64,000 nucleotides of DNA from Myxococcota bacterium (GCA_023150895.1 JAKLJY010000012.1:336-64335), one strand, 5' to 3'; positions 38,323-46,881 are shown, counted from the stretch's first letter. Notes: generated by a model from the letters alone, not told the origin. Numbers and translations: made by a program.

Positions 38323-39585
38323 TCACAGGCCGCAGCGCAGGGGGACGGCCGCCGAGTCGACGACGGTGCCGTCGACATTGACGAACGCGAACGTCGCATC
38401 GGTCGCCGTCACCGTCACGCGCAGCGCCCCGGCGCGGTCCCGATAGCGGAACTGGGACTCGGGCAGCGGCGTCTCGGCGAAGGTGTGCGTGCGCGCGCCG
38501 CCGCTCAGACCGATGATGAAGTACGGCACGCCCTCGACGCTCAGGCGCTCGTAGATGCGGTCCTGACCGCTGACCACGGCATCGATGCCGGCCATCGCGA
38601 AAGGCCAGCGCATCGGCACGCCGCCGCCTTCCTCGCCCCGCCACGAGCTCGAGTACGGCGGGTGGTGGAAGACCGCGACCTTGAGACAGGCGGTGCTGCG
38701 AGCCACCGCCGCCTGGAACCACTGCCCCTGCACGCTCTCCCAGGTGTTCCCGTCGGGCTCGCGGGCGTCGCTGCTCAGGACGAAGAGGTGCACGACCCCG
38801 AGATTGACGTCGTAGTAGCGCTCGTTGCCGGGCAGGGTGAAGAAGTCGAGGAACGGTTGCGCGTTCTCGGTCAGCCAGTCGGCGTCACCGAGCGCCGGCC
38901 AGAAACGGTTGTCGTCCGAACCGCCGCCGAAGCTGCCCGCGTACTCGCCGATGAACTCGCCGAAGTACTGACCGACGTTGCGGTCGATGGTGTCGGCGGC
39001 CCCGGCGGGCATGTTGTTGTCGCCGGCGGTGACCACGAACGCCGGCTCGAAGGTGCGGATGAGATCGGCGACGACGCCCTCGCCGCGGGTGTTGCCGCCG
39101 TAGTCGCTGACCATCGCGAAGACGAGCGGCGTCTCGCGGCAGGTGAGCGTCTCGACGTCCGGGCAGAATGGCACCGCCTCGGCATCGCAGATGCGGCTGC
39201 TGTCGACGAGGCAGTCCGCGCGACGCGCGACGCAGCCGTTGCCGATGATGCGCCCCTCGTCGACCCGGCGATCGCAGTCGTCGTCGAGGCCGTTGCACAC
39301 CTCGGGTACGGGGTCGTCGCAGGCGGGTCCGAGGGCCGCGTCGGGCACCGGCGCCGGCGGGGCGGCGTCGAGCACGGGCAGCGGTGGCCCGGTGTCGAGG
39401 AATGGCAGAAAGGCGTCCGCTCGCAACGCGTCGGGCTCGGGGGCCGCGTCCGGGAGCGCGTCGAGGTCGATGAGCGGGCCGCGGTCGGTGTCGCCGCCGA
39501 GGTCGACCCCTTGCGGGTTGCACGCGGCGAGGAAGAGCAGCAGGGCGAACGGCGGGGTCGCAGACGAAGGGCGTATGCTGGGCAT
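38323..39585 (-). CDS. calcineurin-like metallophosphoesterase lipoprotein
   Basis: Lipobox MPSIRPSSATPPFALLLFLAAC. Phosphoesterase motifs VVTAGDNN and FHHPPYSS. CNGLDDDCDRRVDEG metal-binding-type motif. Confidence 0.6.
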   Translation of the reverse strand: MPSIRPSSATPPFALLLFLAACNPQGVDLGGDTDRGPLIDLDALPDAAPEPDALRADAFLPFLDTGPPLPVLDAAPPAPVPDAALGPACDDPVPEVCNGLDDDCDRRVDEGRIIGNGCVARRADCLVDSSRICDAEAVPFCPDVETLTCRETPLVFAMVSDYGGNTRGEGVVADLIRTFEPAFVVTAGDNNMPAGAADTIDRNVGQYFGEFIGEYAGSFGGGSDDNRFWPALGDADWLTENAQPFLDFFTLPGNERYYDVNLGVVHLFVLSSDAREPDGNTWESVQGQWFQAAVARSTACLKVAVFHHPPYSSSWRGEEGGGVPMRWPFAMAGIDAVVSGQDRIYERLSVEGVPYFIIGLSGGARTHTFAETPLPESQFRYRDRAGALRVTVTATDATFAFVNVDGTVVDSAAVPLRCGL

Positions 39586-39638
39586 GACCCCCGCAGCATG
39601 CGACCTTCGTGCCAGCGGACGCAAGCGCCCGCGCAGCC

Positions 39639-40610
39639 TCAGACGGGGAGTCCGAGCAACCAGCCACCGAGCCAGGCGCCAAGCATGCCTGCCACCGGCA
39701 CCGTCAGGTTGTCATCGATCCGATGGCTGAAGAGCTCGGCGAGGCAGGCGACGAAGGCGGCACACACCCCGACGACGGCGGCGGCGCCCAGCCCCAGCCC
39801 CCCGAACGCACCGACGATCGTTGCAGCGAGCGTGCCGACCGCCAGGAACGTGGTGCTGCCCTCGAGGGAGCGCCCGTGCACGAGTTTGGTGCGCCCCCAG
39901 CGGCGCCCGATCAGCGCCGCGGCCGGATCGGCGAAGGTCAGAATCGCCACGGCGACGCCGCACACCAACGACGAGGCCGAGAGCGCCAGGATGACCAGCG
40001 CCGTCGCGTACCAGGTGCCGGAGTTGACCCGATTCCACTCGTGCGGGTGCGCGACCTTGCCGTAAAGGCGCATGACCCGCTCGTTGAAGGCCGGACTGAA
40101 CTTGCGGATGATCTCGAGCGTCCAGGCGTAGGCGGCGAACAGGAGCGCCGCGAGGGCCAGCGCGTCGTGCGGCAGCAGGACGAGAATGAGGAGCAGCGCG
40201 AACAGGCCCCAGCACACGTGGAAGAGGTTGCGCGCGTAGTTCGTCGGCCGCAGGGCCGGGACGTGGATGCGATACTCGCGCAGGGCGTCCGCGAGGGCTT
40301 CGTAGCGGTGCTGCAGGGAGCGATGGACCTGCCGTCGGTGTTCACGCTCCGCCCGCCAGCGCTCGGCGTGGTGCAGGAGGGTCGCCCGCATTTCGGCGAC
40401 GCGTTCGCGAAGGCCGGCGTGGGGCGCCTCCTCGACGGCCGGCACCGAGGACAGCAGGTGCTCGGCGCGCCCCGCGAGGGCGGCGAGACGCTCGGCGGCG
40501 GCCGCCGCGTTCTTCGAGCGGCGTCGCGCCGGGTCGAACTCCTTGAGGATGGCGTGGAGCTCGATGGCGAGGGCTTCGGTACCGGCGGTCAGCAGGGCTG
40601 TGGACATCAT
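39639..40610 (-). CDS. membrane protein, CTP-dependent polyprenol/phytol kinase-like (dolichol kinase family) C-terminal domain
   Basis: Start at internal MMSTALL. The TM domain contains ADPAAALIGRRWGRTKLVHGRSLEGSTTFL, which is dolichol/phytol-kinase-like. Confidence 0.45.
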   Translation of the reverse strand: MMSTALLTAGTEALAIELHAILKEFDPARRRSKNAAAAAERLAALAGRAEHLLSSVPAVEEAPHAGLRERVAEMRATLLHHAERWRAEREHRRQVHRSLQHRYEALADALREYRIHVPALRPTNYARNLFHVCWGLFALLLILVLLPHDALALAALLFAAYAWTLEIIRKFSPAFNERVMRLYGKVAHPHEWNRVNSGTWYATALVILALSASSLVCGVAVAILTFADPAAALIGRRWGRTKLVHGRSLEGSTTFLAVGTLAATIVGAFGGLGLGAAAVVGVCAAFVACLAELFSHRIDDNLTVPVAGMLGAWLGGWLLGLPV

Positions 40611-40730
40611 GCACTCGTTCGGGGTGGGCGGCCGCGGCCGCGTGCCATGCGCCGACGTGTATAGCGGAATCGGATCGCACACGCCAGCGCCCACGCCCGC
40701 GCGCGAGCGGCGCTCGGGCCGTCATCGCCG

Positions 40731-45489: not shown

Positions 45490-45523
45490 TGCCAGCGGAT
45501 CCTCGCCGGGCCGCGACACGCAT

Positions 45524-46393
45524 CTACTGCCAGTCCGGCTCCGTCCGCGGGCCGACCCCGCCGGTGAGCGCCTGCAGCCCCCAGGGGGGCGAAGCGTTGA
45601 CGAGGTATCCCGCGCGGCATCCGATCCGGACGGGCCGGAACGTCGTGTCGGACTTGTGGGCGGTGAGCGTGTAGTCGCCGGGCGGGACGTTCAGAAAGAG
45701 CACCCCACCGTCCGCCGTCGTCTCCGTCAGCGCGCGATCGGGCCAGATGGCGTTGTACCGGGCGAGGTTGAAATACACCGGACCGTCGACGTCCGTCGGC
45801 ATCGGGTCGAGGCGGACCGTCGCCCCCGGTTCGCCGTGCGTCCCCGGTGTGTCGTCGTAGAGCGAGTTGCCGATCCGCGTCACCGTCGAGGCGATCTGGC
45901 ACCGCGCGGGATCGGGTGTGATGCGCAGGATGCTCGACATGAGCCGGTACATCGCGGCGTCTGGGGCCTGAAACGTCAGGTGCTCGAGGCCGTCGACCGG
46001 GACGACGTGCGTGCCCGTCCGGATGGGCGGGAAGCCTTCGGCGAGCAGCTCGAGCGTGAGGTCGCGGCCGACGGGCACTTCGGGGAACTCGAACGCGCCC
46101 CCCTCCCCGGTCGACGAGGTGACCTCGGGTTGTTCCACCCACCGGACCGTCGCCCCCACGATGTCGCCCCCGCCGGCCGTGAAGGTGAAAGCGTGCCCCG
46201 AGACCGGGACCGGGGTGGATGCGACCGCGGCGTCGGGGGCGGTGGCGTCAGGGGCCGCGGCGTCCGGGGTCGCGTCGGAGGCGCCGACGTCCGCGTCTGG
46301 AATGCCTGGCTCGGTCTCATTCGCTTCGCCGCACGCCGCCGCCCAGAAAACGAACGCCGCCGACGCGCACCGCCGGAGGTTTCGGCGACTCAT
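45524..46393 (-). CDS. lipoprotein with carboxypeptidase-regulatory-like (beta-sandwich) domains
   Basis: Start at an internal ATG giving MSRRNLRRCASAAFVFWAAAC. An ATGA overlap joins it to the upstream small ORF. Confidence 0.5.
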   Translation of the reverse strand: MSRRNLRRCASAAFVFWAAACGEANETEPGIPDADVGASDATPDAAAPDATAPDAAVASTPVPVSGHAFTFTAGGGDIVGATVRWVEQPEVTSSTGEGGAFEFPEVPVGRDLTLELLAEGFPPIRTGTHVVPVDGLEHLTFQAPDAAMYRLMSSILRITPDPARCQIASTVTRIGNSLYDDTPGTHGEPGATVRLDPMPTDVDGPVYFNLARYNAIWPDRALTETTADGGVLFLNVPPGDYTLTAHKSDTTFRPVRIGCRAGYLVNASPPWGLQALTGGVGPRTEPDWQ

Positions 46394-46881
46394 CGCGACA
46401 CCCCGGGGAAGACCCGCACCGTGCCGGGCGCCGGCGCAAACGACGCGGCGGAACCACGGACGACCTCGACCTCGCCCACCTGCCAGGCGTGTCCACACAA
46501 CCGGCAGCGGTGGGCCACGAGCGTCTCCCGCCGCTGCAGGAGCCGGCGCACCGGGCGTTCTTCGAGAATCAGGCCGGCCTCGGCCGGCACCTCGCCATCC
46601 GGTGTCACCAGGCGCAGCGCCGGGCGGCCGGCCTCCCAGGTCTCGTAGAGCGCGGGCGCGTCCGCGTGAACGACGGTGCGGGCCGCTTCCCGACCGGCCG
46701 GCAAACGACAGCGCGGACAGCGCCGGGTCGCCGCGTGCACGCCGACGTGCACCAGCGTGACCGCCAGCAGCGAGAAGACGAACGTGATGAACTCGACGAG
46801 GAACACGGCGGCGATCGGACACCGTCCGCGAAAGAGGGTCAAGGGGGTCGCGATGCACCGACGAATGACCACTATGGTCAT
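46390..46881 (-). CDS. hypothetical small membrane protein with two CxxC pairs
   Basis: ATG ORF with one TM helix and CPRCR...CRLCGHAW motifs. The stop overlaps the next ATG (ATGA). It is preceded by a 150-bp AT-rich region. Confidence 0.4.
   Translation of the reverse strand: MTIVVIRRCIATPLTLFRGRCPIAAVFLVEFITFVFSLLAVTLVHVGVHAATRRCPRCRLPAGREAARTVVHADAPALYETWEAGRPALRLVTPDGEVPAEAGLILEERPVRRLLQRRETLVAHRCRLCGHAWQVGEVEVVRGSAASFAPAPGTVRVFPGVSR

Follow-up and report, generated by a model that had tools for sequence, protein, structure and literature searches.

A solitary FliI/SctN-family ATPase gene within an M16B peptidase operon of a Myxococcota bacterium, possibly the SctN of a dispersed type III secretion system

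The injectisome ATPase SctN (EscN, YscN, HrcN; PDB 6NJO) binds, releases and unfolds export substrates, and the flagellar ATPase FliI belongs to the same family. A further member of this family is encoded in a stretch of DNA from a Myxococcota bacterium (GCA_023150895.1, JAKLJY010000012.1:336-64335), which is 64 kb long, has a G+C content of about 72% and is called the window below. The gene lies in a cluster of nine co-directional open reading frames (ORFs) on the minus strand, running from 46881 to 38323. An earlier note, made from the sequence alone, had called it an orphan FliI/YscN-type ATPase embedded in a non-secretion gene cluster. Here, the ATPase is proposed to be the SctN of a dispersed type III secretion system (T3SS) without a needle, the T3SS* of Myxococcota, with its gene lodged in an operon for an M16B peptidase. 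This proposal is given roughly an even chance of being correct.

Like the injectisome SctN proteins, the window ATPase has an N-terminal barrel, an ATP-synt_ab core and a T3SS_ATPase_C domain, and it is 42-47% identical to them, with the same motifs (Walker A, Walker B, GERGRE and Arg finger). The gene context is different: the YscN, HrcN and RhcN genes adjoin sctL or sctO, whereas the window gene has neither of these nor an export-gate gene as a neighbour and lies inside the M16B operon. In addition, the window ATPase is placed outside the proteobacterial injectisome clade in a neighbour-joining (NJ) tree. The relation to FliI is similar. The score with the FliI clade 1 model is near that with the SctN model, and Salmonella FliI structures are matched at 289 bits. 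However, fliH, fliI and fliJ are adjacent in E. coli, whereas the window ATPase is below the FliI cut-off and no flagellar gene, including fliH and fliJ, was found in the window.

The ATPase of the Myxococcales system, named "Myxo" NF-T3SS (non-flagellar T3SS) or T3SS*, comes from the same phylum and is likewise located between the flagellar and injectisome ATPases (PMC3459982, PMC12428579). It is likely that this ATPase and that of the window do the same job. In Cystobacterineae the ATPase gene is within a conserved short or long T3SS locus (PMC3459982), whereas the genes of the window and of cultured Bradymonadia are solitary. The Chlamydiales, with a working T3SS whose core genes are distributed over several loci, provide a precedent for dispersal (PMC3459982). 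In Chlamydia, however, core genes are present in three of at least four T3SS loci (PMC3459982), whereas the window ATPase has no T3SS neighbour at all. Finally, heterodimeric M16B peptidases, such as the mitochondrial processing peptidase (alpha and beta) and bacterial pairs, resemble the pair of the window in that one subunit carries HxxEH and the other does not. A literature search found no M16B operon with an ATPase gene between the subunit genes, an arrangement present in the group of ATPases described below as clade A, and no link between M16 peptidases and T3SS ATPases.

The ATPase and its clade

The ATPase ORF has three possible starts: GTG at 45519 (458 aa), ATG at 45489 (448 aa) and ATG at 45456 (437 aa). 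The last is the start called by NCBI (P0001, 100% identity). In Pfam, the protein matched ATP-synt_ab with 231.6 bits and T3SS_ATPase_C with 71.5 bits. It passed TIGR01026, the NCBIfam model of the FliI/YscN subfamily, with 397.4 bits (cut-off, 379.5). The best match in the PDB was EscN (318 bits, residues 35-453), followed by FliI (289 bits) and F1-beta (143 bits). GPGAGKT, LLLDSLTRVARA, GEPATRRGFPPS and YTVLVEGDD...LLDGHLAL are all present, and thus the assignment of the earlier note and the motifs quoted in it were borne out. GPGAGKT (with the Walker A Lys and Thr), LIGERGRE, LLLDSLTR (with the Walker B Asp) and the Arg of SVSR align with their counterparts in EscN, YscN, HrcN and FliI. The residue roles in this family are those of the Walker A motif, the catalytic Glu of GERGRE, the Walker B Asp and the Arg finger of SxSR.

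The earlier note had also raised the possibility that the ATPase groups with F1, V1 or Rho rather than with FliI/SctN. This is not so. The F1 and V1 subunit models gave 100-159 bits, far under their cut-offs and under the SctN and FliI scores, and no Rho model was among the best 25 of the 35 NCBIfam families matched. Furthermore, E. coli AtpA and AtpD were outside in the NJ tree, for which E. coli FliI, YscN, HrcN, RhcN and SpaL were the other references.

A step in identity was observed among the 120 best homologues: about 30 proteins are 58-89% identical to the window ATPase (442-809 bits), and the rest are at most 53% identical (at most 389 bits). Clade A, to which the window ATPase belongs, was monophyletic in 60 of 60 NJ bootstraps. 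It lies within an assemblage whose named members are Myxococcota (Sandaracinus, Sandaracinaceae, Myxococcota). This assemblage is separate from the proteobacterial injectisome clade, the deeper NJ nodes being poorly supported. Its placement is in line with the report that the systems of Myxococcales are basal (PMC3459982). The members of clade A come exclusively from metagenome-assembled genomes and metagenome contigs, which, where a name is given, are called Bradymonadia, Myxococcales or Myxococcota. Within this known ATPase family, clade A is new and well defined, and its gene context is undescribed and possibly incidental.

The gene is real and intact, and it encodes a genuine member of the T3SS family under purifying selection. 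Comparison with a 91%-identical orthologue gave a dN/dS of 0.07. There are 118 near-invariant columns in the family, defined by a conservation of 90% or more among other T3SS ATPases. The window ATPase kept 113 of these, and five are shifted in clade A. Conserved changes at otherwise invariant sites in this clade include TSD to RAD and ADE to AEE. An exceptional functional shift of clade A was considered and dismissed, as the injectisome clade showed four shifted columns in the same test. The sequence features together seem to be best explained by a functional hexameric T3SS-family ATPase.

A relic of a degenerate T3SS had been offered in the earlier note as one explanation. In this case, the gene would be a decaying remnant of a lost system with no current function. 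The lack of T3SS partners in the window and the failure to reach the curated SctN and FliI cut-offs would fit such a remnant. However, at least 12 lineages have an intact ORF, conservation of the clade extends to pairwise identities as low as about 51%, and the catalytic motifs are kept. Because of the low dN/dS and the retention of the near-invariant positions, the ATPase is not regarded as a relic, and decay is considered very improbable indeed.

Solitary secretion genes and the M16B operon

Solitary ATPase genes are the rule in the Myxococcota-type assemblage, which counts in favour of a dispersed system. Five sampled ATPases of this assemblage outside clade A (P0038, P0033, P0108, P0088 and that of locus L009) are likewise solitary, with no T3SS gene within 10 kb. 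In cultured Bradymonadia, the sctN, sctV and sctRS(T)U loci are more than 0.7 Mb apart (PMC7460792, PMC11509652). According to these papers, the loci of B. sediminis are DN745_03325 for sctN, DN745_10315 for sctV and DN745_17280-95 for sctR/S/U. In Persicimonas YN101, sctV maps to 0.85 Mb, sctU to 3.53 Mb and sctN to 5.99 Mb, and in Microvenator V1718 the positions of sctV and sctN are 1.07 and 1.79 Mb, respectively. Wherever a strain list gives an ATPase, there is a single one of the SctN type (PMC7460792, PMC11509652). The solitary relatives and these dispersed loci mean that "orphan" status carries less weight. The term used in the earlier note is correct for the 64 kb of the window, but the solitary state does not distinguish this gene from its relatives.

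In one of the solitary cases, a 296-aa protein without a family match (L021, 9114-10004) is encoded with a 4-nt overlap with the start of the ATPase gene (P0108). This protein could be an unrecognised stator-like (SctL/FliH-like) partner.

As the SctN of a T3SS*, the window ATPase would bind, release and unfold export substrates and would energise an export gate of the SctRSTUV type. We infer that this gate is encoded elsewhere in the same genome, the T3SS* genes of this Bradymonadia-like class being presumably scattered round the chromosome.

The immediate context of the gene is formed by M16B peptidase genes (Table 1). The earlier note had listed one M16 gene; the second one and the conserved M16-ATPase-M16 context had been overlooked. 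Both window subunits have the M16 and M16_C domains. HxxEH is found in one of them only, as HLFEH at residue 59, and the same pattern is seen in L001-L014. Judged from these motifs, the two genes appear to encode a classic active/inactive M16B pair. The gene for the inactive subunit starts 37 nt downstream of the ATPase gene. A distance of 8.2 kb (44105 to 52322) separates the two M16 genes and is occupied by the ATPase gene and a block of 6.8 kb (45524-52325). This block contains the genes for the PfkB-like protein, the EF-hand protein, the 808-aa protein, orf163 and the CarboxypepD_reg lipoprotein. Two of these genes are on the opposite strand, and therefore the active M16 gene and the ATPase gene are not co-transcribed in the window.

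The relatives show a more compact arrangement. At L001, L002, L003 and L011 the order is M16 (HxxEH)-ATPase-M16 (no HxxEH) with ATGA or GTGA overlaps on both sides, and at L010 there is an overlap on one side. In terms of proteins, this order has 4-nt overlaps at both junctions for ATPases P0015, P0013, P0027 and P0007 and at one junction for P0028. The upstream M16 protein of L001-L005 is the orthologue of the active window subunit (56-69% identical), and the downstream one in clade-A relatives is the orthologue of the inactive subunit. The 6.8-kb block is missing from L001-3, L010, L011, L024 and L029 and is mostly present in L013/L014. L006 has orf163 and the CarboxypepD_reg gene, and at L023 only the PfkB-like gene separates the active M16 gene from the ATPase gene, which it directly precedes.

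The M16 pair itself can do without the ATPase. When metagenomes were scanned with an alignment of the inactive subunit, 80 loci were obtained. In about 50 of them two M16 genes are adjacent with nothing between, including close orthologues of the window pair (L025, L028 and L030; 49-58% identity). The ATPase gene lies between M16 genes only in L024 and L029 among the 80. It also lies 5' of the inactive M16 gene in the truncated L027 and in L023. When the M16 subunits were concatenated for a tree, L028 and L030 were placed with the ATPase-bearing L010 and L029 at 100% bootstrap support. The two are nested among ATPase-bearing loci, which points to secondary loss of the ATPase gene. Thus, the M16 tree and this nesting indicate a single insertion of the ATPase gene into an M16B operon that already existed and was widespread, followed by loss in some lineages.

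These observations lead to the following history. In an ancestor of clade A, the ATPase gene would have entered a widespread operon for a cytoplasmic M16B heterodimeric peptidase, between its two genes, and it would since have stayed immediately 5' of the inactive M16 gene. In the lineage of the window, further insertions would have moved the active M16 gene 6.8 kb away. The UbiA, kinase-like and phosphoesterase-like genes would have been added downstream as lineage-specific passengers.

Several results weigh against the assignment to a dispersed T3SS*. As the earlier note had stated, no T3SS or flagellar gene lies nearby: Pfam scans of all 46 genes of the window, called from codon-position G+C, detected no Sct or Fli family in these 64 kb of a 98.6-kb contig. 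T3SS core genes are also absent from about 12 clade-A contigs, covered up to 10 kb on each side. In particular, the SctRSTUV export gate, SctL and SctO were found neither in the window nor within 10 kb in clade-A relatives. The curated equivalogs were not reached: the ATPase scored 439 bits with SctN (TIGR02546; cut-off, 604.75) and 432.6 bits with FliI clade 1 (cut-off, 619.1). The other FliI clade models were missed as well (388.5 bits versus 587.45 and 386.9 versus 629.8). No SctN from cultured Bradymonadales was recognised, by source names, among the 120 best homologues; if it is indeed absent there, clade A is not simply its orthologue. Lastly, in each of 12 independent clade-A loci examined (12 of 12), the inactive M16 gene comes immediately after the ATPase gene although the flanking genes change. 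This adjacency persists at ATPase identities as low as 57%, and the junctions on both sides are usually stop/start overlaps of 4 nt. Such persistent coupling would also be expected from a functional partnership.

In such a partnership the ATPase would work with the M16B heterodimer. The T3SS-type hexamer would deliver proteins to the clamshell peptidase after unfolding them or removing their chaperones. The result would be a machine for ATP-dependent processing or degradation, or a peptidase that acts at the ATPase to trim T3SS* substrates. Besides the invariable adjacency and the overlaps at L001, L002, L003, L010 and L011, this idea is favoured by the monophyly of clade A with its conserved TSD to RAD and ADE to AEE changes, and by the fact that no such arrangement was found described in the literature. 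In addition, by a crude heuristic of N-terminal hydrophobicity and charge, neither M16 subunit carries a signal peptide in most clade-A loci, which would place the peptidase in the cytoplasm together with the ATPase. On the other hand, the same pair is common where there is no ATPase, loci that lack the ATPase are nested among those that have it, and the functional shift of the ATPase is no greater than in other T3SS ATPase clades. In the window, L006 and L013/14, the active subunit gene has come to lie 5-7 kb away, with genes on the opposite strand in the gap, and both M16 genes of L001, as called, have signal-peptide-like starts. Moreover, a gene inserted 5' of the distal gene of an operon may persist through read-through dependence alone. 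A working partnership is therefore viewed as a tentative possibility, unlikely on balance. Doubtful, too, is a more far-reaching form, in which a T3SS-family hexamer was captured by an M16B peptidase as a new ATP-dependent machine, or in which the peptidase, as a dedicated processing step, is linked to the ATPase of the non-flagellar T3SS that branches earliest. The signature of such a capture would be an M16 (active)-ATPase-M16 (inactive) operon that is translationally coupled on both sides.

By the signal-peptide heuristic, the adjacent M16B pairs of L032-L102 form an exported group, in which both subunits have a signal peptide (27-33% identity to the window pair), and a cytoplasmic group (34-60% identity). 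A move of the M16 pair to the cytoplasm upon gain of the ATPase was considered and dismissed, as the nearest ATPase-less relatives are also cytoplasmic by the same heuristic. The M16 genes of L001 (8559-10004 and 11263-12645) begin, as called, with lipoprotein- or Sec-like sequences, MRRWHIGFLGVWLAACGG... and MRRPLRRLLFSLSLLAIAGTPAARA..., respectively; apart from a weak one in L011, no such start is seen in the other clade-A loci. If these signals are real, the peptidase of L001 would be periplasmic and the ATPase cytoplasmic. The last third of the inactive M16 gene of L002 (11275-12488) matches in two reading frames. This frameshift reflects either an assembly error or a pseudogene.

A conserved block with genes for an FHA protein, a response regulator, an S41/PDZ peptidase and DUF423 lies 5' of the trio in L001, L003, L010 and L011. 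The S41/PDZ peptidase has about 1000 aa and belongs to the MXAN_5808 family (TIGR03900, 1037 bits). The FHA or "Yop-YscD_cpl" proteins of these loci were considered as SctD and rejected, being generic FHA proteins that gave 26.6 bits with the SctD model against a cut-off of 86.

Downstream genes and other features of the window

The features of the cluster and its surroundings are listed in Table 1. Within the nine ORFs, neighbours are separated by 4-37 nt or overlap by 4 nt (ATGA at orf163/CarboxypepD_reg and GTGA at M16/UbiA), in agreement with the tight single-strand layout described in the earlier note. The labels M16, UbiA, CBS and YkgJ given there are confirmed as well, these families and the ATPase all being matched above the Pfam gathering score.

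Table 1. Coordinates, strand and basis of assignment of the ATPase gene, its neighbours and other genes of the window
Feature	Coordinates	Strand	Basis
orf163, Zn-ribbon-like CxxC...CxxC	46390-46881	-	Pfam scan of block
CarboxypepD_reg lipoprotein	45524-46393	-	Pfam
FliI/SctN-family ATPase, clade A	44143-45519	-	Pfam, TIGR01026, PDB, motifs
M16B peptidase subunit without HxxEH (alpha-like, predicted to be catalytically inactive)	42807-44105	-	Pfam Peptidase_M16 and M16_C
UbiA-family prenyltransferase	41920-42810	-	Pfam UbiA, 60.9 bits
Stand-alone CBS-pair protein	41448-41906	-	Pfam CBS, 103.8 bits
CxxCxxCC (YkgJ-type) zinc/iron-chelating domain protein	40731-41417	-	PF03692, 26.7 bits (cut-off, 23)
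Kinase-like membrane protein, N-terminal helical domain	39639-40694	-	Homologue names
Phosphoesterase-like lipoprotein (LAAC lipobox)	38323-39585	-	Sequence reading
M16B peptidase subunit with HLFEH (predicted to be active, beta-like)	52322-53656	-	Pfam
PfkB-like gene	50532-52325	-	Pfam
EF-hand protein	49575-50507	+	Pfam
808-aa protein	47030-49456	+	Part of 45524-52325 block
KamA-family radical SAM aminomutase	53656-55008	-	TIGR00238
Deoxyhypusine-synthase-like gene	37261-38295	+	
Large secreted protein with MopE-type repeats	137-2407	-	
Large secreted protein with MopE-type repeats	28897-32460	-	

The genes 3' of the inactive M16 gene had led the earlier note to suggest that the ATPase was recruited to a different machine, an isoprenoid-type set being encoded there. 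According to this idea, the partners would be the UbiA, kinase-like, CBS, YkgJ-type and phosphoesterase-like proteins. The genes of the window are indeed co-directional and tightly spaced. The UbiA, kinase-like and phosphoesterase-like genes are also found downstream in L006, L023 and L013/14, that is, at ATPase identities of at least 75%, and a UbiA homologue is encoded divergently beside the solitary Sandaracinaceae ATPases of L007 and L009. However, the set is absent from L001-3, L010, L011, L024 and L029. L013 lacks the CBS gene, which L006 and L023 have, and the YkgJ-type gene is confined to the window, with no counterpart in L006, L023 or L013. An adh_short gene replaces UbiA beside the P0038 ATPase, and two of the functional labels, kinase-like and phosphoesterase-like, lack confirmation. 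As the set is confined to close relatives, it is a lineage-specific neighbour and not a conserved partner, and recruitment of the ATPase to it seems quite improbable. With respect to synteny, the M16 (active)-ATPase-M16 (inactive) part of the locus is therefore conserved and the downstream set is not.

The UbiA homologues beside the solitary Sandaracinaceae ATPases, which are about 50% identical to the window ATPase, are located at 3-539 in L007 and at 9053-9982 in L009. They are 41-44% identical to the UbiA protein of the window. The contig of P0038, in which adh_short occupies the UbiA slot, is a close relative of L009.

The label "polyprenol-kinase-like" of the earlier note was supported in part. 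Homologues at 40-48% identity are named "dolichol kinase" (JGI) or "diacylglycerol/polyprenol kinase family" (NCBI), and one homologue carries PF01148. The protein itself gave no match in Pfam, NCBIfam or the PDB, relaxed and profile searches included. Its likely true start gives a protein of 322 aa (39639-40607). The AlphaFold2 (AF2) model is all-helical, with a predicted local distance difference test (pLDDT) score of 94.2. A Foldseek search of the PDB with this model returned nothing significant; CdsA, the CDP-diacylglycerol synthetase, had an E value of about 0.3.

The label "phosphoesterase" found no support from profile or structural searches and comes from the reading of motifs alone. 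The protein matched nothing in Pfam, NCBIfam or the PDB, relaxed searches included, and its single-sequence AF2 model had a pLDDT of 35. A Cys-rich MopE-like motif, which is a weak copy of the MopE type, is present, and the C-terminal half contains GDNN, GDAD, FHHPPYSS and GQDRIYER. We take these four motifs to recall metallophosphoesterases of the purple-acid-phosphatase type. MopE-type Cys-rich metal-binding repeats are also found in two very large secreted proteins of the window, one of which has a matrixin (M10) domain in addition.

Promoter and terminator scans gave results at chance level only, and no Rfam match was found in the window. PADLOC detected no defence system among the cluster proteins, the only match being a P-loop match to GajB of 16.8 bits.

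The KamA-family gene passes TIGR00238 and lies directly 5' of the active M16 gene, and TGATG forms the junction between the two. The deoxyhypusine-synthase-like gene is convergent to the last gene of the cluster. At 7671-14720, a gene for a sigma-54 activator (GAF-AAA-HTH, minus strand) adjoins genes for a hemerythrin and a di-haem cytochrome c. A COX1/NorB-like oxidase (447 aa), a CbbQ/NorQ AAA protein and a VWA (NorD-like) protein are also encoded there. This set looks like a nitric-oxide-reductase or haem-copper-oxidase maturation cluster.

Meaning for type III secretion in Myxococcota

The T3SS-like system of Myxococcota is regarded as the earliest-branching non-flagellar T3SS. ATPase genes are routinely solitary in genomes of the Bradymonadia and Sandaracinaceae types, and consequently detection of T3SS by locus misses or misjudges systems in them. 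The retention of the ATPase gene between M16B subunit genes across the whole of clade A provides a concrete and testable candidate partner. If the ATPase and the peptidase do cooperate, proteolysis would be coupled to an F1-like/T3SS ATPase in a new way. Otherwise, the locus would be a clean example of a gene long trapped in an unrelated operon.

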